From: a virus
Length of the DNA: 42,576 nt
Direction: 5' to 3' (one strand)
Virus record (IMG/VR): IMGVR_UViG_3300016665_000124
Shown: one piece after another, positions 3,201 to 42,576 of the stretch
Layout: each line of letters starts with the position of its first letter
Numbering within the stretch: the stretch's first letter is position 1
The notes under the pieces: generated by a model
The model's database searches: none
Told to the model about the DNA's origin: nothing
Seen by the model: the letters and a program-made list of their open reading frames with translations, nothing else
Program-made: the position numbers and the translations under genes

Positions 3201-3526
3201 GAATCCAGCCAGTCCATAATTATGGCTTCCTGGGAAACCGAATAAAACGGCTGCGCTGCATACCAGACGCGCCAGTCCTGATGCGCCTTTTCGCGGTTGC
3301 ATCGCAGGCAACATGCCACCAGGTTGTGCCTGACGGTTTGACCGCCCTTAGCCTTTGGCTGCACGTGATCTAGCGTTGCTGTCGCCTTGGTCAATGGCGT
3401 GAAGCAATAGGCGCATTGCTCATTAAAGGCCAGCATGATTTGATCACGCCAGCGCCGCTTTGCTTCTGCTTTACGAATCAGTTCGCCATCGTCGATGTAG
3501 TCATCAATCATGCAGCCTGCACGCAA
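3197..3526 (-). CDS. HNH endonuclease
   Basis: CAYC...LDHVQPKAKGG....NLVACCLRCNREK matches the HNH beta-beta-alpha metal-finger motif. Confidence 0.8.
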   Translation of the reverse strand: MRAGCMIDDYIDDGELIRKAEAKRRWRDQIMLAFNEQCAYCFTPLTKATATLDHVQPKAKGGQTVRHNLVACCLRCNREKAHQDWRVWYAAQPFYSVSQEAIIMDWLDS

Positions 3527-4089
3527 GGCATCACGCGTAAATGCCCGTTGTAATGCCCAGTGACGCTGTAGTCACGGTCAGGCCGTTGGGCCATCTGGAA
3601 GAAGACCATCTGGCCGATCTTCATCCCAGGCCATAGTGCCAATGGCCGCAACTTGCGTGCATTAGTGATCTCCATCGTCAACCTACTGCCATGCCAACCT
3701 GGATCGCAGTAGCCAGCAAGAAGATGTTCAAAGCCCTGCCTTGCACGGCTTGACTTAAGGACAAACTGAGCGGCTACGGTATCTGGCAGGTTGAAGATCT
3801 CCTGCGTTTCTGCCAGCACAAAGCATCCAGGCTGCAGCAGGTATGGGTCTTCTGCAGTGTTGTAGGTGATGTCTACCAGCTGCATCTCATCGGTGTCTGG
3901 CACTTCTTCCATCACGTGCCAGCCGAGCGTAACGTCAAGGCTTGCAGGATTTAGCAGCTCTGGATTGAACGGCACCACCATGGCCTCCTGTTGGCACAGG
4001 TGGCGGATTGCATGATCAGGCAAAATCACGGCATCACCAGCAGCGCCCAACCGGAGCCAAGCCCTTCGACCTGCCAGCGTGGCAGCCAA
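3508..4089 (-). CDS. dcd: dCTP deaminase / dUTPase-superfamily protein
   Basis: ILPDHAIRHL..VVPFNPELLNPASLDVTLG and GYCDPGWHGSRLTMEITN...L.PGMKIGQMVF match Dcd signature blocks. The ATG at 4089 overlaps the upstream gene by 64 nt, so the true start may be internal. Confidence 0.75.
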   Translation of the reverse strand: MAATLAGRRAWLRLGAAGDAVILPDHAIRHLCQQEAMVVPFNPELLNPASLDVTLGWHVMEEVPDTDEMQLVDITYNTAEDPYLLQPGCFVLAETQEIFNLPDTVAAQFVLKSSRARQGFEHLLAGYCDPGWHGSRLTMEITNARKLRPLALWPGMKIGQMVFFQMAQRPDRDYSVTGHYNGHLRVMPCVQAA

Positions 4090-27908: not shown

Positions 27909-29258
27909 TCAATAGATTCGGATGCCAGTTCCACGCCCAGCACCAGCGTGCAATGGGTTGAACTCACGCCATACTAGATAGCCAAGGGCATCGTTCATGT
28001 GATCAAATCCCGCATCCTTGTCGGGTTCGCCTTTATCAGTGTAGGACTGCAGTTCCAAGCACTCAATCAGTCGCTTGCATGTTGCCGATACTTGCAGCCT
28101 GACCTGGCCTTTGCCGTTTTCCAATAGCGCCTGCACAGCCGCGACACGATCGCGAACTGGAGGATTGGCGCGTGGCGACTGGTTGGACATGCCGTAGGAC
28201 TCAAGGATCTGTACGTCAGTCTGGCTTGCGTTTGTGCTGCGGTTGCCGCCGCTGGCATCTGGGTAGGCGTACATGCGCCGACGCGGATAACGCCTGACGA
28301 TCTCCTGGGCCAGGGCATCCGTGTCATGGGCGCCGCTGATCTCATCGATCACCAGCAAGCTGGCGCCAAGCCGCACGGCAATCACTGCAGACATGTTGCC
28401 GACGTTAAAGTCAACGCCTATGCGCAACGGCTCGTGGTCGGTGTCTGGCAGCTCATTGACCAGATGCTTGTTGCGGTTGAACCTGTCGTAGACCTGTCCC
28501 GTCGTGAGATTGACGAACTCACCGTCCAGGTAGGCACGTAGCAGGCTTGGGTCATAGTTGGCCTGAAGCCGTTCGATGAAGTCTGGCGGCAAGTGTGGAT
28601 TATCAGCGGACCGCATCTTGATCAGATGCCGGTCTGACCTTGTCTTGGCCTCGTCGCTGCCAAAGGTATTCCACATCCATCGAAACCCTTCCGGCGTGCT
28701 GGCTGCACCGAACTGCCGCACATTGCCCGCACGCAAGCGGCCGAGGATTTTAGGAAATGCCTTGTTGGCGATGCTGGGCGTCACCGTGTCGATCTCGTCG
28801 GCCAACACCCAGGCAAGGTTGAGGCCAATGATGCGCGACCAGTTCTCAAAGCTGCGGCAAAGGATCTTAGTGTCACCGCCAGGTAAGTGCAGCATGTACT
28901 CAGGAAGCGGTGATGCCCTGAAGGTGTAGGGAATGTCGTAGGCCTCAAGGAACTGCTCGAAGTCGGTCTGCCAGATGTCGCGGATCAATGGGCCGGTCGG
29001 TTCCATGACCGCACCGATAAAGCCTTGATTGGCTGCGGCAAGCATCACCGCCTTGGCGCATAGGGCCCTGGTTTTGCCGGCGCCATAACCAGCGCTGATG
29101 CCAAGGATCTGCGTGGTGGTGTCATCGACAAACGCGAGCTGCCCTGGATGTAGGCCATTGCGGATACGTTGCAGCAGCTCGTCGGTGTCCTGCTGCGTGG
29201 CGACCTCCATAAAGCCAAGCAAGCTGCCGGGCTCACAGATGCCAGCGAGCAGGCTCAT
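27909..29258 (-). CDS. terL: Terminase large subunit
   Basis: Walker A GISAGYGAGKT, Walker B LAWVLADEID, a C-terminal nuclease-like region, and ATGA coupling to the small-subunit candidate. Confidence 0.85.
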   Translation of the reverse strand: MSLLAGICEPGSLLGFMEVATQQDTDELLQRIRNGLHPGQLAFVDDTTTQILGISAGYGAGKTRALCAKAVMLAAANQGFIGAVMEPTGPLIRDIWQTDFEQFLEAYDIPYTFRASPLPEYMLHLPGGDTKILCRSFENWSRIIGLNLAWVLADEIDTVTPSIANKAFPKILGRLRAGNVRQFGAASTPEGFRWMWNTFGSDEAKTRSDRHLIKMRSADNPHLPPDFIERLQANYDPSLLRAYLDGEFVNLTTGQVYDRFNRNKHLVNELPDTDHEPLRIGVDFNVGNMSAVIAVRLGASLLVIDEISGAHDTDALAQEIVRRYPRRRMYAYPDASGGNRSTNASQTDVQILESYGMSNQSPRANPPVRDRVAAVQALLENGKGQVRLQVSATCKRLIECLELQSYTDKGEPDKDAGFDHMNDALGYLVWREFNPLHAGAGRGTGIRIY

Positions 29259-29578
29259 GACATCTCAAACCGCAGCAGCTTGGCCTGATCTTCTAGGGCT
29301 TTTAGAGCAACGCTGATCTGGTTTTTATCAGATGCTCGTCGTTCATATTCTTGAAGCCGAGCAATAGCGGCAGCAAGCCATTGAGGGCGCTCTAGCTCAG
29401 CATCGAGCGCCATAAGTTGACGAGCACGAGCCATGTAATTCTCGGCTTGACGCTCACCAACATTCCATTGTTCCGAACAATGGCGAACAATTTGTGTTCT
29501 ACTGTATGCACGCAAAAGGAGATCGTAAACGGCATTTACCCGTTCGTCGATCTCCGTGTTGGTGCCTTTTCTAGCCAC
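29255..29578 (-). CDS. terS: Terminase small subunit candidate (HTH)
   Basis: 107 aa. The YSRTQIVRHCSEQWNVGERQAENYMARA HTH-like segment, directly upstream of terL. Confidence 0.55.
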   Translation of the reverse strand: MARKGTNTEIDERVNAVYDLLLRAYSRTQIVRHCSEQWNVGERQAENYMARARQLMALDAELERPQWLAAAIARLQEYERRASDKNQISVALKALEDQAKLLRFEMS

Positions 29579-30611
29579 GTATCTGAACCGGCATGATCAA
29601 GTTGGTCTGTTCCATTGTATCAAGCGGACGAATGACGATGGGTGTGGTTGCCGTATTGGCTGAAATTACCACCTCGTCACCGTCAAGGCCTTGCAGTGCA
29701 TCCAGGAGATAGGCAGCGTTCATGGCAAGGGTCGGCAGGGTGCCACAGCCGATGATGGTCTCCTCGCCGCCGGAGCCTTCGGATTCTGCGGCGACGGACT
29801 TGGCGGTGAGCTTGATGATGCCGTTACCGCTGACGATAGCGGCACGTTGAATGGCGACGATCAGGTCGTCGCGGTCGAACTGACAGGTGTGTTTGAAATC
29901 CTGCGGGACGAGGCTTTGAACCTGAGGGTAGGTGCCTTGTAGCAGACGGCAGATGATCTGCGCGCCACCTGCTAGCTGCAGGTTGGCGTAGGTGTCATCG
30001 GCTGCGATGGATAGCGGTCCATGGCATAGGCGCAGCAGCCGTGCTGGCAATACCAGGTTGAGGGTGCCGTCCCAGTTGAGCTGACGAATGGCGAGGCGAT
30101 GGCCATCGGTGGCCTCGAGGGTGAGCACACCACCTGCAGCGTGAAGGTGTACGCCTTGCAGCAGGGCCTTGGCGGCATCGTTGCTGGCGGCTGTGGTGAC
30201 GGCAGCGATGGCAGGCCCGAGGTCGATCAGGTCCGAAGGCTCGGCTGTGATGACCGGCAGCGTGGGGAAGTCTTCGGCTTCGTGCGACTGAAGGCTGTAG
30301 GAGCCGCTTGTGGTGGCCAGCTTGAGTGATTGCCCGTCTAAGGCCACCGTGAGCGGCCCTGAGCCGTCCAGGCGGCCCACGAGGTCCGCCAGCAGCCGAT
30401 GGGGCGGGCAGGCAGCCCCAGGGGCCTCTACAGCGGCCGGGATGGCGATGCTGATGCCGGTCTCCAGGTCGTAGGTGGTGAGGCGCACGGCATCGGCTTC
30501 AGCGGTGAGCAGGACACCGCTGAGGACTTGATGCTGCTTGCCGGAACCAACGGCTTTGGCGACGGCTTTGAGGGCGGCGCTGAGATCAGCGCATGAGGCG
30601 ACGAACTTCAT
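29571..30611 (-). CDS. dnaN: DNA polymerase III beta sliding-clamp homolog
   Basis: From the internal ATG: MKFVASCADLSAALKAVAKAVGSGKQHQVLSGVLLTAEADAVRLTTYDLETGISI..., ~346 aa with a three-domain length. The upstream 61 codons of the track ORF look non-coding. Confidence 0.75.
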   Translation of the reverse strand: MKFVASCADLSAALKAVAKAVGSGKQHQVLSGVLLTAEADAVRLTTYDLETGISIAIPAAVEAPGAACPPHRLLADLVGRLDGSGPLTVALDGQSLKLATTSGSYSLQSHEAEDFPTLPVITAEPSDLIDLGPAIAAVTTAASNDAAKALLQGVHLHAAGGVLTLEATDGHRLAIRQLNWDGTLNLVLPARLLRLCHGPLSIAADDTYANLQLAGGAQIICRLLQGTYPQVQSLVPQDFKHTCQFDRDDLIVAIQRAAIVSGNGIIKLTAKSVAAESEGSGGEETIIGCGTLPTLAMNAAYLLDALQGLDGDEVVISANTATTPIVIRPLDTMEQTNLIMPVQIRG

Positions 30612-30786
30612 CGGCGGATTGGGTGAGGGCAGAGATCTGGTCGTCGGTGTAGCCGCGGTATTTGCGGCAATGGCTGAGGAACAGATCGAAGTGGTCCAGG
30701 AAGTAGAGCGCGTCCTCTTCGCTGGGCTGCTGGCGTGAGCCAAGGCAGTCCACGTAGAAGGCGATGGCAGGAGAGGGCTGAGCCAT
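30586..30786 (-). CDS. 66-aa hypothetical protein upstream of dnaN
   Basis: The internal ATG of track ORF 30586..30945 gives MAQPSPAIAFYVDCLGSRQQPSEEDALYFLDHFDLFLSHCRKYRGYTDDQISALTQSADEVRRLMR. It overlaps the dnaN start by 26 nt. Confidence 0.4.
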   Translation of the reverse strand: MAQPSPAIAFYVDCLGSRQQPSEEDALYFLDHFDLFLSHCRKYRGYTDDQISALTQSADEVRRLMR

Positions 30787-30843
30787 GGGGCCATGGTGCC
30801 TGATCCATGGCGCTGATGCCATCAAATGTTGCGACTTGTGACG

Positions 30844-30945
30844 CCGGACGCCAAACCCATTGGCATGACTGGGTTCGGGCGCAAGTCGGACGCAAGCGGA
30901 CGCAAGTCGGACGCCAAAACCCTTGCAAACACTGGGCGGACGCAA
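30844..30945 (+). repeat. Left iteron array: six copies of TCGGACGCAA-like 10-mers
   Basis: Copies start at 30844, 30875, 30886, 30896, 30907 and 30936 (8-10/10 match). The four central ones are spaced 10-11 bp apart. Confidence 0.85.
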
Positions 30946-30956
30946 AAACGGGGGTT

Positions 30957-31040
30957 CCCCTTACCTTCCCTATACGTAAAAAATGTTCACCCCGTAACAC
31001 TGCCCCCCCTTTCTAAAAATCTGATTTGATTTACCCTTAT
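30957..31040. promoter_or_regulatory. AT-rich spacer between inverted iteron arrays (candidate DNA unwinding element; may also carry a leftward promoter)
   Basis: Contains an A6 run (30978-30983), a C7 run (31003-31009), ttctaaaaatctgatttgattt, and no convincing ORF. Confidence 0.5.
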
Positions 31041-31137
31041 TTGCGTCCGACAAGGCAAGAAGGTAGATAGGGACAAGGTTTTTGCGTCCGAAATTTGCGT
31101 CCGACTTGCGTCCGACACGGACGCAATTTGCGTCCGA
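31041..31137 (-). repeat. Right iteron array: five perfect TTGCGTCCGA copies plus one inverted copy
   Basis: Perfect 10-mers at 31041, 31082, 31095, 31106 and 31128, and an inverted ACGGACGCAA at 31117. CGGACGCAA-t-TTGCGTCCG forms a 9-bp-arm palindrome abutting the primase stop codon. Confidence 0.9.
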
Positions 31138-31139
31138 CG

Positions 31140-33503
31140 TCATGCCCATGAATCCAGCCTGAGACCCACCAAGAGACGATCACGACTCTTTCCGCCGCCT
31201 CTGTCGGACGCAAGTTTCGGGAAGATCTGCCGCAATGCCGGCATCAGTAGACGCGGTGCCTTGACCGTCCGATCAGCCGGCGGATCCATCAGCCAGCGCC
31301 CACCAGCGTCGATATAACCTTCCTCGCGATACCAGTTCTGTAGAGCGTCCCAAACGCGTTTGCAAGACACTTGTGCATTTTCATCCCAGGTCAATCCGAC
31401 GGCATCGCAGAAATCCCAAAGGTGACAAGATCCACGCCTTACATCTTGCATAGCCTGGTTGCCGGTGGCGTAGTCGATACCATCCGAAACACTGAGCGCC
31501 ATGCCTTCAAGAAGCCAATTTAAGAACGATGGGCAGATTTGCTCTTGGATGAAAGATGGGTCGTCCTTTAGCCTTGGATCTGCCTGTAGATGCGTCGGCT
31601 CTGTTGGTGTTGCCATGAAAGTTTTGCGGAACTTAAACACATGGAACCGCGTCTCAATGGCAGCCTGCTCACCAGTCAGTGATGGATCCTTGTTCAAATT
31701 GAACACAAACAGCACGGACGGTACAAACTGAGACTCCTGCACACCCTTCAACTCGTAAGACAATTCCTCGCCGCTGATTGCGGCTTTAAGTGATTGCAGG
31801 TTGTCAATACTGACGAATTGCGAGTTTTCACTGGACCAATTAACCGATGCACCACGAAGCGGCGCGATTGGAAACTTGCGGCCTTGGTCGTACTGCCGAA
31901 AATCAGCCAGAGTGCAAGAGGTGAAATTGCGACTACCGAGCGTGTCTCGCAATGCCGTGCGGATGGTGTCCTTGCCGTTGCTGCCTTCACCGATCATCAG
32001 CACTGCGCGAGGACGGCCTCTGGTGGCGCGATATTTGGCAAGATCAAGGCCGCTGCCAAGGATGCGCTGGATAGTGTCACGGTCACCAGGCTCTACGGCT
32101 TCCAGCAATCGCCATAGGTGCTGTGCGTTGGCTTGAGGGTCGTAGTCATAGTCGGTGACGTAGGTAAAGGCCACATCCGGGTTATGCGGTGTGAAGGACA
32201 GGTCGAGCTTGCGGCCTGACCATGACCAAGACACCACGCCATTGCGGCAGTTAATGGCATTCGATGGGTTGACATCAACCGGCTTGAGGAGCCGCCGCAT
32301 CCATGCCAGGGCTTCATCCACATATTTGGGACGGCGCCATGGGTAGACCGGTTCCGACTGCTTTTCGGTTCTGACATGCAGCAACGAGAGAAAAGCCGCC
32401 AGCTCAGGCGCTATCTCCTCGTCGGGCCTTGCTTGGTAATGCGTGCCATTCCAGCAATGGAGTACACCGTCAACACAAATCCAGCGGTCACGGGGATGCT
32501 TGAAGACATGGGTGACAGCAAGATCAAGCCATTCGGTGCCGGCCTTGTCATAGAGCTGCAGGTTGACGACCTCACCATCTGATGCCTGCCGACGCGGCCG
32601 AGGCATTGGCGTCGCTGGCCTCCAGCCGTGATGCCGCGCCCAGTACCAGAAGGTGCCAGCGGTGATGCGCTCACCACCTGAGGATGCGATCTGCTCAAGG
32701 CCTTGCCATTGCGGGCTGTGCTGCTGCATCAGCTCAATGGCGAGGTCGGCGCTACCGCAGGCTTGGATCAGCCCCCAGAAGATGTTGCGGTAGATGTGGT
32801 AAGTGCCGCTACCTGGTGTGCGTGGCGGGATAACAGCAAGGGCATCACGGATGTCGCTAATGCTGCGCTCTACTGGTTCGGTGTGCTGCTGTGCTGGCTT
32901 CTGGTGCTGATAGAAGGCCTCGGACGGCAGGACCGCTTCGATGTCGGCAACGGTGTAGCGATGGCCAGCGCTAGTGACCATCTGGCACGGATCACCGAGA
33001 CTGCCATCAGCCATGGCGTAGTAGCTGCCGGGCAACCGCATGACGCGCGAGGCGTTTTTGATGCTGCGGTCGGCATCGCAATAGTCGAGTAGTCGCGCCT
33101 GCACCAGCTCCCAGTGAGCCGGTGTAATCGGATCGGTAAGAACCCAGTAGCTGTGGATGGACTTGCCGCCGGTATTGATCTGAAACGTGGGCTCAGGCAA
33201 CTTGAGCGACTGCCATGCGGTGAGCTGCCATTCGCGCGGTCGGTCGTCCCATTCAGCAAAGAAGGCACGACAGGCGGTGATGTCGGCATTGGTGTCACCG
33301 CCATCGTTGATGACGACGTAGACGCCACGACCTTCGGCTTGCCATTGCTCGATGAGCTTCTTGGAGGCACCACCTTTGCGGCCCTTGTCGGTGCCCTTGT
33401 CTGGGTGGTCGCGATGGAGGAAGGCGCGAAGACGGATGGCGCCGGCGGGTTTGCCGAGCAGGGCAATGAACCGACGAGCTTCATCAAAGTCGATTGGTTT
33501 CAT
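31140..33503 (-). CDS. Bifunctional primase (prim-pol/RepB'-like N-terminus) and SF3 (P4/D5-type) helicase
   Basis: 787 aa. The N-terminus has GVYVVINDGG...AFFAEWD...GGKSIHSYWVL (primase-polymerase-like), and the C-terminus has Walker A VLMIGEGSNGKDT in a P4/D5-like NTPase context. Confidence 0.8.
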   Translation of the reverse strand: MKPIDFDEARRFIALLGKPAGAIRLRAFLHRDHPDKGTDKGRKGGASKKLIEQWQAEGRGVYVVINDGGDTNADITACRAFFAEWDDRPREWQLTAWQSLKLPEPTFQINTGGKSIHSYWVLTDPITPAHWELVQARLLDYCDADRSIKNASRVMRLPGSYYAMADGSLGDPCQMVTSAGHRYTVADIEAVLPSEAFYQHQKPAQQHTEPVERSISDIRDALAVIPPRTPGSGTYHIYRNIFWGLIQACGSADLAIELMQQHSPQWQGLEQIASSGGERITAGTFWYWARHHGWRPATPMPRPRRQASDGEVVNLQLYDKAGTEWLDLAVTHVFKHPRDRWICVDGVLHCWNGTHYQARPDEEIAPELAAFLSLLHVRTEKQSEPVYPWRRPKYVDEALAWMRRLLKPVDVNPSNAINCRNGVVSWSWSGRKLDLSFTPHNPDVAFTYVTDYDYDPQANAQHLWRLLEAVEPGDRDTIQRILGSGLDLAKYRATRGRPRAVLMIGEGSNGKDTIRTALRDTLGSRNFTSCTLADFRQYDQGRKFPIAPLRGASVNWSSENSQFVSIDNLQSLKAAISGEELSYELKGVQESQFVPSVLFVFNLNKDPSLTGEQAAIETRFHVFKFRKTFMATPTEPTHLQADPRLKDDPSFIQEQICPSFLNWLLEGMALSVSDGIDYATGNQAMQDVRRGSCHLWDFCDAVGLTWDENAQVSCKRVWDALQNWYREEGYIDAGGRWLMDPPADRTVKAPRLLMPALRQIFPKLASDRGGGKSRDRLLVGLRLDSWA

Positions 33504-33676
33504 GCCTGCTCCTGCGACTTGCTGGCCGGCAGGATGCCGTCACGATGGAATCGCATGGCCTCCTGGATCACGAGGCGCAATGTTGCAGATCGTGACAGGC
33601 CAGCTGGCCGCCAGGAATCAAGCCATTGCAGCTGCTCTGCGGTCAGTTGCACGGATAACGGATGGGCGAGTGGCAT
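33500..33676 (-). CDS. Ribbon-helix-helix (CopG/Arc-like) regulator, first gene of the leftward arm
   Basis: From ATG 33676: MPLAHPLSVQLTAEQLQWLDSWRPAGLSRSATLRLVIQEAMRF, a beta-strand plus two helices. The longer start at 33727 would bury the divergent promoter region. Confidence 0.6.
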   Translation of the reverse strand: MPLAHPLSVQLTAEQLQWLDSWRPAGLSRSATLRLVIQEAMRFHRDGILPASKSQEQA

Positions 33677-33693
33677 GGCGCCTGCGGTGACGC

Positions 33694-33721
33694 TTGACAG
33701 GCTAGCGGGTTCCGCTAGAGT
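33694..33721 (+). promoter_or_regulatory. Candidate rightward promoter (TTGACA - 16 nt - TAGAGT)
   Basis: Perfect -35 at 33694-33699 and a 4/6 -10 at 33716-33721, 25 nt upstream of the ATG at 33746. A mirrored leftward TTGGCA-17-TAGCCT lies on the other strand. Confidence 0.5.
33702..33718. promoter_or_regulatory. Operator-like perfect palindrome CTAGCGG-gtt-CCGCTAG within both promoter spacers
   Basis: 7-bp arms seen directly. Outer arms CGCTTG (33691-96) and CAAGCG (33725-30) extend the symmetry. Confidence 0.6.
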
Positions 33722-33745
33722 TGCCAAGCGTCACGCCCAGGTTCA

Positions 33746-34174
33746 ATGGAGATAGCCCCATGCCCTAAGTGCGGGCAAGAATCGCCGTTCAAGCTCAGAC
33801 CAGACACGCAGCACCATGGCGAGATTCGCTGCCCTACACATGGGCATCTGTGGATTTCAAAACCGACTGAACTAAAGACTCCACGTCGCAAGATTAATCG
33901 CGAGTTATTTGAGCTGGTGCCTGGCGATATGCAAGAGTTTTGCTGGACATGCTTAAGGCATCGTGACTTATTGAAAACGATTAGGCCGTCAGTGTCACTG
34001 CAGGCACATCATATTTTTGAAGCGCAACATGGCGGTATAGATCATCGCGACAACGTTCAAATTCTTTGTGATGAATGCCATGCTGCCGTACATCGAACAC
34101 GTGGGCAGTTGCATCGTTATGACTCAATCTCTAATTTTCAAGCATTTGTACGGCACGAACGACTTACGCGATGA
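33746..34174 (+). CDS. HNH endonuclease with an N-terminal zinc ribbon, first gene of the rightward arm
   Basis: CPKCG...CPTHGH, then CWTC...LQAHHIFEAQHGGIDHRDNVQILCDECHAAVH (HNH motif). Confidence 0.8.
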   Translation: MEIAPCPKCGQESPFKLRPDTQHHGEIRCPTHGHLWISKPTELKTPRRKINRELFELVPGDMQEFCWTCLRHRDLLKTIRPSVSLQAHHIFEAQHGGIDHRDNVQILCDECHAAVHRTRGQLHRYDSISNFQAFVRHERLTR

Positions 34175-34428
34175 CCACCACCATCAGCATTCGCCGCTTA
34201 CTTGAGCTGCGCATTAGCCATGGCGATCAATTGGCATTGGATTATCTGAGCCTTGCAGCATTGCTGCGCTATGCGCCTGGCGTGGCGTGCGTACAGCAGT
34301 TGCAGCAGAACTGGAATGTCAGCCAATCAAGCGTGAGCCGTCGAGTAGCGCACCTGGCGACGGCAGGATTGATTGAGGTGACCAATGGCAGTGGTGCGTA
34401 TCACGTCCATGAATTGAAACTCCTATGA
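34171..34428 (+). CDS. Small winged-helix DNA-binding protein
   Basis: 85 aa. NVSQSSVSRRVAHLATAGLIEV is a recognition-helix plus wing pattern. ATGA overlaps at both ends. Confidence 0.6.
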   Translation: MTTTISIRRLLELRISHGDQLALDYLSLAALLRYAPGVACVQQLQQNWNVSQSSVSRRVAHLATAGLIEVTNGSGAYHVHELKLL

Positions 34429-36734: not shown

Positions 36735-36917
36735 ATGACACCCGACGAAATCAACGCCACCTTGATGACCGCTTGTCGGTTTGGCGGTGGCTTTATTGCA
36801 CGGCTCGCTGAGGCTGGCCTGCACGCTGATCCGAACAATCGGCAGCGTCTTCTGATTGCTTTCCCTGAGTTAATTGATGACTACGGCCCAACCACAACCT
36901 TCTATCTCAAACGCTGA
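36735..36917 (+). CDS. Hypothetical protein
   Basis: ATGAC start (MTPDEINATLMTACRFGGGFIARLAEAGLHADPNNRQRLLIAFPEL...). The track ORF starts earlier on a GTG. Confidence 0.5.
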   Translation: MTPDEINATLMTACRFGGGFIARLAEAGLHADPNNRQRLLIAFPELIDDYGPTTTFYLKR

Positions 36918-37695
36918 TTATCACGCTGATCCAGCAGTCAGCGCATCTCATCTCAAGGCCATCAGCATCAGCCCATTGCACTACTGGGCGCGATACGTCG
37001 ATCCAGATCGCATCACGCCAGAGCCGACGCCTGCCATGCGCTTGGGCAGCATGGTCCATTGCACCGTGCTGGAGCCGCATGAGCTGCCGCATCGGTACCT
37101 GCGTGTGCCTGATGGCATCGACCGTCGCACCAAGGACGGCAAGGCCGCATGGGCTGAGCTAGAGGCCAGCGGCAAGGAGCTGATCAAGGCCGCCGACTGG
37201 GATATGGCCATGGCCATGGCTGAAGCCTGCTGGCGGCATCCTGCAGCGGGCAAACTGCTGCGGCAGCCAGATGGCCTAGCCGAGCTGTCGTTCTGGTGGT
37301 CTGATGGTGATCTGCGCTGCAAGTGCCGACCAGACCTGCTGGCTAGTGATGTGATCGTTGATCTCAAGACGACCACCGATGCCAGCCCTGCAGCTTTCGC
37401 TCGTGCTGTGGTCGGCTTCGGCTACCACCTGCAGGCTGCTCATTACCTCGCCGGCACTGGCGCTGCACGGTTTGTCTTCCTTGCTGTCGAGAAGGCGCCG
37501 CCCTATGCGGTGGCTGTCTATGAGTTGGATGCAGCAGCACTTGCCACTGGCGAGCAGCTGCGGCAAGAGGCCATGCACATAATCCGCCAATGCCGCCAGG
37601 CTGACCACTGGCCTGGCTACAGCGATGACTGCCAAACCCTCAGCCTGCCTAAGTGGGCAGTGCCAACTGACTTGATTACTCCTGACCAATTCTGA
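36874..37695 (+). CDS. PD-(D/E)XK exonuclease (RecE / exonuclease VIII C-terminal-like)
   Basis: ISNADYHADPAVSASHLKAISISPLHYW, CRPDLL...VIVDLKTT and YHLQAAHY motifs, with a RecT-like gene immediately downstream. Confidence 0.75.
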   Translation: MMTTAQPQPSISNADYHADPAVSASHLKAISISPLHYWARYVDPDRITPEPTPAMRLGSMVHCTVLEPHELPHRYLRVPDGIDRRTKDGKAAWAELEASGKELIKAADWDMAMAMAEACWRHPAAGKLLRQPDGLAELSFWWSDGDLRCKCRPDLLASDVIVDLKTTTDASPAAFARAVVGFGYHLQAAHYLAGTGAARFVFLAVEKAPPYAVAVYELDAAALATGEQLRQEAMHIIRQCRQADHWPGYSDDCQTLSLPKWAVPTDLITPDQF

Positions 37696-38453
37696 TGACC
37701 TCAGCACTTGCGCTCTGGACGCCAGAGCAAACCCAACTGATCAGCAGCACCATTGCACCGGGCTGCAGCAATGACGAGCTGCGGCTATTTGCCTACGCGT
37801 GCCAACGCACCGGGCTGGATCCGTTCAGCAAGCAAATCTACGCCATCAAACGTGGCGGCAAGATGACCATCCAGGCCGGCATCGACGGCCTTCGCAGCAT
37901 CGCTGAACGCACAGGCCAGCTTGATGGCTCTGAAACGTACTGGTGCGGGGAGGATGGCGTCTGGGCTGACGTATGGCTCGGCAGCAAGCCACCCGCCGCG
38001 GCCAAAACCATCATCCACCGTAAAGGCAGTAGCCATCCGTTCGTCGGCGTGGCCCGGTTTGCGGACTACAACGCCGGCCAGGGCCTCTGGTCCAAGATGC
38101 CGGCGGCCATGATCGCCAAGTGCTCCGAAAGCCTGGCACTGCGCAAGGCTTTCCCTGCTGATCTCAGCGGTGTCTACAGCACAGATGAGATGCAGCAGGC
38201 TGAGGTGGAGCCGGTGACGGTTACCGCTGAGCCTGCACCTGCACTCACAGGCCCCAGCAAGACGTTTGTCGCTGGTCAAGGTGCGGTCGCCAAGATCAAG
38301 ACCATGGATGACCTGGCCCGCGTGCAATCGCGCCTGCAGGCTCGCGTGGATTCTGGTGACCTAACGACCACCGAGCACGAAGAGCTGCAGATCCTGCTGC
38401 TCAACAAAGAAGCCGACCTGATCAAGGCTGATTCCGATCCCTTCGAAGACTGA
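37695..38453 (+). CDS. recT: RecT/Bet-family single-strand annealing protein
   Basis: LDPFSKQIYAIKRGGKMTIQAGIDGLRSIAERTGQ and KCSESLALRKAFPADLSGVYSTDEM blocks. Confidence 0.8.
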   Translation: MTSALALWTPEQTQLISSTIAPGCSNDELRLFAYACQRTGLDPFSKQIYAIKRGGKMTIQAGIDGLRSIAERTGQLDGSETYWCGEDGVWADVWLGSKPPAAAKTIIHRKGSSHPFVGVARFADYNAGQGLWSKMPAAMIAKCSESLALRKAFPADLSGVYSTDEMQQAEVEPVTVTAEPAPALTGPSKTFVAGQGAVAKIKTMDDLARVQSRLQARVDSGDLTTTEHEELQILLLNKEADLIKADSDPFED

Positions 38454-38456
38454 TTC

Positions 38457-38810
38457 ATGTCTCTTTATGCAACCGGCGTAGTTCGCATCATCAGCGACCT
38501 ACAGATGAAAACCTTCGATAGCGGCGCCATGGTCTGCAACTTTGCAGCCGGCATCCAAGAAGGCAAAGACAAAAATGGCGACTACATCAATAACGTGATT
38601 GATGTAGAGGTTTGGAACAAAGCCGCTGAGGTGATCTACGGCAAACTGAAGAAAGGAGACTGCCTTCTGCTTAGCGGCAACATCCGTCGCCAGGACTGGA
38701 TCGATAAAGAAACTGGCAAGAAGCGATCAAAGCATCTGCTGTCCGCTAGCCGGTTTGAGTTCCTGCCGCGTGCAGCTGGCGAAACCTCGTCACCCATGGA
38801 TGACTTCTAG
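38457..38810 (+). CDS. ssb: Single-stranded DNA-binding protein
   Basis: 117 aa, OB-fold-like pattern (VEVWNKAAEVIYGKLKKGDCLLLSGNIRRQDW), and an acidic C-terminal tip PMDDF. Confidence 0.75.
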   Translation: MSLYATGVVRIISDLQMKTFDSGAMVCNFAAGIQEGKDKNGDYINNVIDVEVWNKAAEVIYGKLKKGDCLLLSGNIRRQDWIDKETGKKRSKHLLSASRFEFLPRAAGETSSPMDDF

Positions 38811-38910: not shown

Positions 38911-38943
38911 TGCCGGCATTAGGGTCCTTCTCTAATGCCGGCA
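38911..38943. promoter_or_regulatory. Perfect 12-bp inverted repeat TGCCGGCATTAG-(9 nt)-CTAATGCCGGCA
   Basis: Seen directly, about 100 nt downstream of ssb, followed by TTCTTCC. May be a terminator-like hairpin or a protein-binding site. Confidence 0.6.
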
Positions 38944-39039
38944 TTCTTCCTCAATCTTGAACAACCGTTCTGGTGGAATGTCAACCATCAACCAATCGCC
39001 CATTTTCATTGCGTTATCGCAAGTCATCTCAGTCTGCCT

Positions 39040-39288
39040 ATGGAATGCCCAAGCTGCCAGAACCGATGGATCAAGGTTGTAGAAACCAATACCCGCGAAC
39101 GCGATTACATCGCCCGCAAACGCCAGTGTGCCGCCTGCGATCACACCTGGTTCACCGTGGAGCAGATCGTCAGCCCTGACTCAATCACCTGGCGCAGGGC
39201 CGGCGGCACTGGCGGAAGGCCAGTGTTACGAAAAACAACAGCACCGCCCGACGTGCCCGAGATACCTGGCACCATTGAGCACAGCTGA
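39040..39288 (+). CDS. Four-cysteine zinc-ribbon protein, paralog of the 1435/1498 ORF
   Basis: MECPSCQNRWIKVVETNTRERDYIARKRQCAACDHTWFTVEQ. The track ORF starts at 38935, but that N-terminal extension looks non-coding. Confidence 0.6.
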   Translation: MECPSCQNRWIKVVETNTRERDYIARKRQCAACDHTWFTVEQIVSPDSITWRRAGGTGGRPVLRKTTAPPDVPEIPGTIEHS

Positions 39289-42016: not shown

Positions 42017-42334
42017 ATGGAAACCTCTGTCACTCAAATCCAGATCAACGGAGTTGATTATGTTCGCGCTGATTCCGTTCTTGGCACCAATCCCAATGGC
42101 AATCGCGCTGTTGTGGTGGTCGATCGCGGCTGGATCTTTGCCGGTGATGTTACCCGCGAAAATGGTCGTATTCGCTTGAGCCGTGCGCTGCATGTGTTCA
42201 AATGGGATTCCATTGGCTTTGCCAAGATGGTTGAAACGGCAAATGCGGATCTGCGGCCTATTGCTGATGTGGATCTTCCGGAAGGCGCTGAGATTTTCTG
42301 CGTGCCGGTGTCTGATAATTGGGGGCTCAAGTGA
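42017..42334 (+). CDS. Hypothetical protein
   Basis: 105-aa ORF (…RAVVVVDRGWIFAGDVTRENGRIRLSRALHVFKW…). Its stop overlaps the next ATG (TGATG). Confidence 0.55.
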   Translation: METSVTQIQINGVDYVRADSVLGTNPNGNRAVVVVDRGWIFAGDVTRENGRIRLSRALHVFKWDSIGFAKMVETANADLRPIADVDLPEGAEIFCVPVSDNWGLK

Positions 42335-42576
42335 TGACTGAATTGATGCGCCCTGTTAGCTACGGCGACGGCTTCGGCGACGGCAACGGCGACGGCTTCG
42401 GCGACGGTTACGGCTACGGCTACGGCTACGGCTACGGTTACGGCTACGGCTACGGCTACGGCTACGGCTACGGCTACGGCTACGGCTACGGCGACGGTTA
42501 CGGTTACGGAAACGGCGACGGAAACGGCTACGGCTACGGCTACGGCTACGGCTTCGGCTTCGGCTGCGGCGACGGC
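42334..42576 (+). CDS. (X-Gly)36 Tyr/Gly-rich repeat protein, 5' part (continues at nt 23-58 after the junction; about 92 aa in total)
   Basis: MTELMRPVS followed by 36 strictly alternating X-G dipeptides (X = 21 Y, 7 D, 4 F, 3 N, 1 C), then NCSPHRNRRAK after the junction. Confidence 0.55.
   Translation, partial: MTELMRPVSYGDGFGDGNGDGFGDGYGYGYGYGYGYGYGYGYGYGYGYGYGYGDGYGYGNGDGNGYGYGYGYGFGFGCGDG
42409..42492 (+). repeat. Hexanucleotide microsatellite (TACGGY)14
   Basis: 14 consecutive TACGGC/TACGGT units. Related GAC/TTC/AAC-GGC units extend the periodicity from 42361 to the window end. Confidence 0.95.

Follow-up and report, generated by a model that had tools for sequence, protein, structure and literature searches.

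The window analysed here is a stretch of viral DNA of 42,576 nucleotides (IMG/VR record IMGVR_UViG_3300016665_000124), in which a large primase-helicase gene is followed at its 3′ end by an intergenic interval, then by a 66-residue open reading frame (ORF; orf66) and the gene of the β sliding clamp DnaN, as the initial annotation had described; all of these genes are on the minus strand. A small ribbon-helix-helix (RHH)-like protein is encoded immediately upstream of the primase-helicase. The interval contains two arrays of a short repeated sequence (iterons) that face in opposite directions across an AT-richer centre, and a further copy lies within the 3′ end of the primase-helicase gene itself (Table 1). 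From sequence comparisons among related loci, we consider it very probable that the segment 30844–31213 is the replication origin of this phage, of the kind served by a self-loading primase-helicase.

Table 1. Features of the proposed origin and the adjoining genes (window coordinates)
Feature	Position	Strand	Description
DnaN (β sliding clamp)	29571–30611	−	All three Pfam DNA_pol3_beta domains; phrog_947, E 3e-59; ATG at 30611
orf66, 66 residues	30586–30786	−	Directly downstream of the proposed origin; no family match; outside the origin machinery
Distal iteron array	30844–30945	−	TTGCGTCCGA-like copies at 30844, 30875, 30886, 30896, 30907, 30936
Centre	30946–31040		95 bp, 57% A+T; proposed melting and priming zone
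Gene-proximal iteron array	31041–31137	+	Perfect TTGCGTCCGA at 31041, 31082, 31095, 31106, 31128; inverted copy at 31117
Primase-helicase, 787 residues	31140–33503	−	Pfam D5_N and DUF5906; PHROG DNA helicase/primase families; proposed initiator
Primase-helicase codons 721–787	31143–31343	−	Winged-helix-like predicted topology; proposed iteron reader
Iteron 0	31204–31213	−	Perfect thirteenth copy, inverted, in the primase-helicase coding sequence; codons K-L-A-S 763–766
RHH-like protein, 58 residues	33500–33676	−	Stop codon overlaps primase-helicase start; homologues upstream of the helicase in most lineages
Nested palindromes	33688–33735		GTGACGCTTG-N28-CAAGCGTCAC, inner CTAGCGG-GTT-CCGCTAG; read from the sequence

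Allowing one mismatch at most, the 42.6-kb window contains 14 copies of the 10-mer TTGCGTCCGA, 12 of them within 30875–31213, compared with 3.05 copies on average, and at most 7, in 100 shuffles. Its 7-nucleotide core, GCGTCCG, is found 15 times in the window, again with 12 copies clustered (30845–31211), compared with an average of 7.2 copies, and at most 13, in shuffled sequences. The enrichment over shuffles, together with the arrangement of the intergenic copies in two oppositely oriented sets of six, shows that the repeats reported in the initial annotation are real. On the plus strand the distal array reads as TCGGACGCAA; its outermost copy, at 30844, has an intact core and two mismatches to the 10-mer, both in the flanks. 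The spacing of about one helical turn that had been noted for this array is seen in its central copies, which are 11, 10, and 11 bp apart, and the tight blocks of both arrays are spaced at 10–13 bp. The gene-proximal array has the composition first described for it, five perfect copies and an inverted one; the inverted copy carries one mismatch and forms, with the copy at 31128, the palindrome CGGACGCAA-t-TTGCGTCCG, which ends 3 nucleotides from the primase-helicase stop codon.

Two distal copies are extended to CGGACGCCAAA(A)CCC..TTG..ACTGGG. An extension of the form AAACCC..TTG..ACTGGGTT accompanies some distal iterons both in the window (30850–30876 and 30913–30937) and in four related loci described below (L054, L068, L071, and L072); it is kept across iteron word types, and in L072 it forms a perfect palindrome, AAACCCAGT-CCCTG-ACTGGGTTT.

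The copy inside the coding sequence (iteron 0) is spelled by the codons AAA, CTT, GCG, and TCC, which show no synonymous variation in 16 loci carrying the window's word (type A, see below). CTT is used in all 13 of the type-A loci that keep the leucine, whereas neighbouring conserved residues use two to six codons each. The absence of synonymous change means that selection acts on the DNA word itself at this place; the four codons encode the first wing strand of the predicted C-terminal hairpin.

The AT-rich core proposed in the initial annotation is present, moderately so, but is 95 bp long rather than about 85 bp. Against 43% A+T for the window as a whole, the centre ranks among the top 2% of 95-bp windows, and its least stable 40-mer by nearest-neighbour stability, starting at 31007, falls within the top 0.2%. 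The centre is purine-rich on the gene-sense strand and contains A6, T5, and G7 runs and the conserved boxes TGTTACGGGGTGAACA and TATAGGG. A DnaA-box search gave matches at chance level with none near the interval, and an Rfam search of 30400–31500 at a permissive threshold matched no family.

Conservation of the array layout and exchange of the iteron word

We compared the window with 67 IMG/VR loci encoding relatives of the helicase (full-length matches at 99% to 58% identity), to which five more distant metagenomic loci (42–57% identity) and three Cyanobium/Synechococcus genome contigs matching the helicase part were added. In these 70+ related loci, the two-array layout follows the helicase stop codon in every case with enough 3′ sequence: it starts ∼0–45 nucleotides past the stop and consists of forward copies, an AT-richer centre, and reverse copies. 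The positions of the copies are nearly superimposable between lineages, as illustrated by the offsets (> forward, < reverse) in the window (3>, 15<, 25>, 36>, 49>, 90> ... 196<, 225<, 236<, 246<, 288<) and in L048, which has a different word (4>, 14<, 26>, 37>, 49>, 79> ... 185<, 215<, 226<, 247<, 279<). The inverted second site is found again in word types A, B, and D. In 11 representatives of type A, 54 of the 84 iteron-core columns are invariant compared with 31 of 216 other intergenic columns.

The iteron word is not constant. The window and all full-length relatives of at least 69% identity carry CGGACGCAA (type A), whereas L047–51, L056, L069, and L072 carry CGAAGGCAA (type B); the remaining words are CGGACCCAA / GGAGCCCAA (L054 and L068), GGAAGGCAT / GGAAGCCAT (L070 and L076), GGAGGCAT (L074 and L075), and GGGAGCC (L071). 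Within a lineage a single word is common to all copies, and the word has been switched several times with the layout retained, a pattern expected of sites that are read by one co-evolving protein.

In 21 representative loci the centre spans 76–130 bp, with an A+T content 9–27 percentage points above that of its own locus. A (C)ATATAGGGG(G) box and G-runs recur in the centres of the window, L009, L023, L047, L048, L054, and L068, and the purine fraction on the gene-sense strand is 0.53–0.71 in 19 of the 21 loci. The box, the G-runs, and the purine bias are common to three different iteron word types, and these features could constitute a priming or loading signal that is independent of iteron specificity.

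Three of the loci are bacterial genome contigs: a Cyanobium metagenome-assembled genome (L074), Synechococcus sp. CCY 9618 (L075), and Synechococcus sp. CS-1332 (L076). In each, a homologous primase-helicase gene is followed by the two-array layout with GGAGGCAT or GGAAGCCAT words, and in L075 it is preceded by a gene for an AlpA/excisionase-like helix-turn-helix (HTH) protein. These loci could be integrated satellites or prophage remnants, and point to picocyanobacteria as the likely host group. In the genome of cyanophage S-2L (L073; MW334946, 23039–23397), the 360-bp gap 3′ of the PrimPol gene has a gagagagagaaaaaaaggggg tract flanked on each side by GGCAC/GTGCC repeats; this may be an origin of broadly similar design that has not been annotated, and no origin is discussed in the S-2L paper.

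The primase-helicase and its C-terminal region

The primase-helicase comprises an AEP PrimPol domain (residues ∼1–195, encoded at 32920–33503), a helical linker, a D5_N domain (336–468), a superfamily 3 (SF3) P-loop helicase (∼470–680), and a C-terminal domain (∼690–787). The AEP domain matches the PrimPol of cyanophage S-2L (PDB 6zp9, E 4e-31), a phage with a 2-aminoadenine (Z) genome, at 35–38% identity, and the helicase part matches PriRep of the Staphylococcus aureus pathogenicity island (SaPI) SaPI5 over residues 412–587 (7ola, E 1e-5). The nearest match to a protein of a cultured phage is limited to the AEP domain of S-2L; a megablast search with 29.5–33.6 kb of the window against 50,697 phage records returned no match. 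An AlphaFold2 (AF2) model built on 36 homologues (predicted local distance difference test [pLDDT] score 82) contains a C-terminal module of two helices (714–728 and 750–757) and a β-hairpin (765–768/776–783). In a Foldseek search with the full-length model, the top matches were African swine fever virus (ASFV) PrimPol and, at the N-terminus, 6zp9, with a template modelling score of 0.92 normalised by target length; because ASFV PrimPol dominated the matches, this search says nothing specific about the C-terminal domain.

Several lines of sequence evidence identify the C-terminal ∼67 residues of the helicase as the best candidate for the iteron reader, an assignment that we regard as likely. 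The helicase gene is the sole constant neighbour of the arrays among the related loci. In a sliding comparison, every relative with the same word is closer to the window protein than any relative with another word in residues 721–787, with a peak at 741–770; the signal reaches +0.23 in this region, is weaker at 141–180 (at most +0.10), and is marginal near residue 581. Where identity over the rest of the protein is equal (0.67–0.70), same-word pairs are 0.63–0.78 identical in the tail and different-word pairs 0.39–0.45. Thus the window protein shares 0.70 of its tail with that of L044 (same word) and 0.42 with that of L047 (other word), the two being equally related to it elsewhere, and the sister pair L071/L072, which differ in word, are 0.80 identical over the rest of the protein but 0.60 in the tail. 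Differences are also visible within a predicted helix, which reads VKAxRLL with words ending in CAA, and VKAAHNL with GGGAGCC. Of the four loci with words ending in CAT, three have V(K/R)IPRDL and the fourth (L076) has VRTPNGL.

The proteins considered as binding partners in the initial annotation fare less well. The primase N-terminal domain shows almost no divergence that correlates with word type, and the RHH-like protein is unlikely, since L048–51 and L071/72 keep the arrays without it and its predicted DNA-reading strand varies under the same word. The third of these candidates, orf66, was rejected because it is missing from most loci that keep the word. Two further candidates were also discarded: an 85-residue winged HTH (wHTH) protein (34171–34428), which is missing from most same-word loci, and a NikA-like RHH protein found in relatives, of which there is no homologue anywhere in the closed genome of the window.

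Proposed origin function and competing explanations

The proposal of the initial annotation that iterons and a melting centre together form an origin is the best explanation of these observations, given that the layout is conserved 3′ of a homologous helicase gene and that the iteron cores are better conserved than the spacers. We infer that initiation would proceed as follows. The 787-residue PrimPol/SF3 helicase would bind the 9–10-bp iterons via its winged-helix-like C-terminal domain and, because the arrays point in opposite directions, two helicase assemblies would flank the AT- and purine-rich 95-bp centre. The centre would then melt and the helicase rings load, the N-terminal AEP domain would make the first primers, and elongation would involve the phage β clamp and single-stranded DNA-binding protein (SSB), using either PrimPol or the Pol III of the host. 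The RHH-like protein, which is translated together with the helicase, would most likely repress its own operon promoter, as ORF56 does in pRN1 (see below).

RHH proteins such as Omega, ParR, and CopG bind arrays of short direct or inverted repeats, which raises the alternative that the arrays are transcription-factor operators, for example for the RHH-like protein, that switch the operon of DnaN, terminase, and structural genes and do not form an origin. The interval directly precedes this long co-directional gene block, in many lineages an RHH-like gene and the helicase gene are translated together, and a gene for a NikA-like RHH protein directly follows the arrays in most type-A relatives. 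We nevertheless consider operator function in place of an origin quite unlikely. A scan of 30500–31400 found no σ70-type promoter or intrinsic terminator consensus, and the arrays stay with the helicase gene while the downstream gene changes (orf66, NikA-like RHH, DUF3223, and others). The window genome has no NikA-like RHH protein. In place of the upstream RHH-like protein, L048–51 encode an orf66-like protein, L071/72 a 64-residue non-RHH protein, and Synechococcus an AlpA-like HTH protein, all with full arrays, and the predicted DNA-reading β-strand of the RHH-like protein is LSVQLT, IPLRLA, or TPIRLS among loci with identical words. Furthermore, the promoter gap of the RHH operon has no GCGTCCG core and contains palindromes of its own, which fits an ORF56-like autoregulator.

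A second alternative is that the element acts as a large stem-loop or cruciform formed by the inverted arms, with the word mattering for base pairing only. As single-stranded DNA, 30840–31145 folds at −79 kcal/mol (z = −8.1 versus shuffles), and a stem-loop 3′ of the gene has been proposed as the assembly site of replication proteins of the pRN1 type (PMC4234260). However, a hairpin does not need tandem copies at 10–13 bp within each arm, isolated copies, or a local palindrome, and all copies in a lineage share one word and were switched together. Such concerted switching implies one reader protein rather than pairwise compensation, making a purely structural role very unlikely. Least credible, to the point of being highly improbable, is that the arrays are recognised by the small terminase for packaging (pac) or serve as a centromere for partition: such sites are often arrays of short repeats, and the large terminase gene (27909–29258) lies 1.5 kb downstream, preceded by a 107-residue ORF of unassigned function, but the arrays follow the helicase gene with no terminase nearby in L068–L072 and the Synechococcus contigs, the 107-residue ORF is missing from several same-word loci, and those parts of the window that were examined showed no gene of the ParA/ParM type.

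Several observations weigh against the origin assignment or against the C-terminal domain as iteron reader. The AT-richness of the centre is only moderate. The covariation of word and tail is partly confounded by phylogeny, and the C-terminal domains of type B, which have one common word, are only 40–48% identical to each other, such that few residues can be decisive. The winged-helix-like fold of the C-terminal domain comes from a single AF2 model; a model that AF2 built from the single sequence of the C-terminal 109 residues had a pLDDT of 57, disagreed with the full-length model, and was not used. A search with the C-terminal profile against PDB sequences gave nothing significant and no match to solved winged helices, and hhalign of this profile with the C-terminus of P4 α returned a probability of 0.3%. 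Cumulative GC skew, a check proposed in the initial annotation, has extremes near 4 kb and 36 kb and not at 31 kb; because the skew follows gene orientation it is uninformative for the origin, and neither supports nor refutes it.

The interval may also have a transcriptional role, alone or in addition, because it lies directly upstream of the DnaN/terminase/structural block. A joint reading, in which the origin doubles as a late-gene switch and the lineage words form an incompatibility code shared with picocyanobacterial islands, seems to us unlikely. If its first part were true, helicase loading or fork passage through the conserved TATAGGGG / G-run centre would license downstream transcription and couple late expression to replication. 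If the second were true, the code would be shared with the AlpA + primase-helicase + iteron islands of Synechococcus/Cyanobium, which could then be the first satellite-like elements in picocyanobacteria.

Comparison with characterised replicons supports the assignment of the proposed origin to the known self-loading primase-helicase class. Classical iteron plasmids (RepA/π/TrfA) and λ O have 17–22-bp direct repeats or a set of four palindromic 19-mers, located to one side of an AT-rich stretch, and use a dedicated non-helicase initiator, host DnaB, and often DnaA boxes. The window resembles them in having repeated putative initiator sites beside an easily melted AT-rich stretch. In contrast, its words are of 9–10 bp, its two arrays are opposed, the proposed initiator is itself a helicase, and there are no nearby DnaA boxes; no Rep_3/O-type gene was seen among the window ORFs scanned. 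The proposed origin is not of the classical iteron-plasmid or λ type.

Close parallels exist with the SaPIs. SaPI Rep is a self-loading helicase that recognises iterons by a C-terminal winged helix and is proposed to load one hexamer per side; the SaPI origin consists of 6–12 iterons immediately 3′ of rep, with at least two on each side of an AT-rich centre and in opposite directions, and the iteron word differs between islands (PMC9371898). The window likewise encodes a D5_N + SF3 (AAA+) helicase as the proposed initiator and has the cluster directly 3′ of its ORF, the first intergenic copy lying 3 nucleotides past the stop; opposed sets of six iterons flank the AT-rich centre, and words are lineage specific, as between SaPI islands. 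It differs in the length of the iterons (9–10 bp compared with 5–6 nucleotides in SaPIs), in the fused AEP PrimPol of S-2L type, and in the iteron inside the coding sequence. It also differs in being a complete tailed-phage genome with DnaN, SSB, structural genes, and a probable picocyanobacterial host; as a closed 42.55-kb genome with terminase, portal, and tail-size ORFs, it is not itself a SaPI or other phage-inducible chromosomal island, nor a satellite island.

In P4, the α protein combines a primase with an SF3 helicase as well as a winged helix, and binds 8-bp repeats (PMC2777425); in the P4 GenBank record, crr consists of ten 8-bp repeats in both orientations directly 3′ of α. The window is similar in that primase, SF3 helicase, and a (predicted) C-terminal DNA-binding domain reside in one polypeptide, with a repeat block 3′ of the gene. 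However, P4 has a DnaG/Toprim primase rather than an AEP PrimPol and two separated cis elements (ori and crr) rather than a single cluster. Given its AEP N-terminus, and with no C-terminal sequence similarity detected to P4 α (reference domain 1ka8), the window replicon is not of P4 type by sequence.

The gene order of pRN1, in which the RHH repressor ORF56 acts on its own promoter and orf904 (prim-pol/D5_N/SF3/winged helix) is followed by an essential 166 bp (PMC4234260; PMC2777425), is matched by the RHH-like ORF, the prim-pol/D5_N/SF3 gene, and the conserved 3′ element of the window. The authors of that work proposed a stem-loop for the downstream element (PMC4234260), and such a structure has also been proposed for the Bordetella BIP-1 phages. 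The window thus shares with pRN1 and Bordetella BIP-1/BPP-1 a small RHH (putative) repressor, a prim-pol/D5_N/SF3 gene with a C-terminal DNA-binding domain (predicted here), a non-coding (proposed) origin 3′ of it, and the possibility of a long hairpin. The difference is that in pRN1 a 100-nucleotide stem-loop is essential and iterons have not been found, whereas here repeated, lineage-specific words are conserved.

The design, already known from SaPIs, P4, and pRN1, involves no new principle; what is new is its occurrence in uncultured picocyanobacterial phages. The present work provides a concrete origin and initiator proposal for an uncultured freshwater picocyanobacterial phage family; among its characterised relatives, the closest is the PrimPol of S-2L, a cyanophage with a Z genome. 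It also describes six or more iteron words that occur naturally on a single fixed scaffold, together with the C-terminal domain variant that accompanies each, as material for studying DNA reading by self-loading helicases and for building orthogonal cyanobacterial replicons.

Neighbouring genes and genome context

The 58-residue RHH-like protein has no Pfam match, but a profile built from homologues of it gives matches to the NikR RHH domain (1q5v, E 1e-3) and to 2kke (E 3e-5), and tblastn places the true start of the ORF at 33676. It is a probable autoregulator of the replication operon and unlikely to be the iteron reader. The nested palindromes lie within the 70 bp that separate the RHH/primase-helicase operon from the divergent HNH/wHTH/SNF2-helicase operon; judged from the sequence, they are probably an early operator/promoter region and a candidate RHH operator.

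A homologue of orf66 in L049 (3287–3538) is located upstream of the primase-helicase, as in L048–51 generally, in the place of the RHH-like gene; orf66 is thus a small accessory gene whose position within the replication module shifts. DnaN is the first recognisable gene product downstream of the proposed origin. Further downstream, the 107-residue ORF and the large terminase gene are followed by a DUF4055 portal-like ORF and large tail-size ORFs.

The first 20–22 nucleotides of the window (positions 1–22) recur at 42555–42576, which indicates a closed circular (or circularly permuted) genome of ∼42.55 kb. The sole other repeat cluster in the window, (GCTACG)36 at 42359–42576, was considered as an alternative origin and rejected, as it is coding sequence that crosses the assembly junction. 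The repeats encode a Gly-Tyr / Gly-Asp repeat protein (MTELMRPVSYGDGFGDGNGDG...GYGYGY...), the ORF of which runs from 42334–42576 across the junction into 1–54 and ends just before an ATG at 55.

No DNA polymerase other than PrimPol was seen in the window. The phage also encodes an SSB (38457–38810), a RecT/exonuclease region (36874–38453), and a dCTP-deaminase-like protein (3508–4089). Elsewhere in the window, two small paralogues (1435–1761 and 38935–39288) have a zinc ribbon like that of NrdR, and there are two MarR-like winged-helix proteins (1899–2357 and 34171–34428); all four are regulators.

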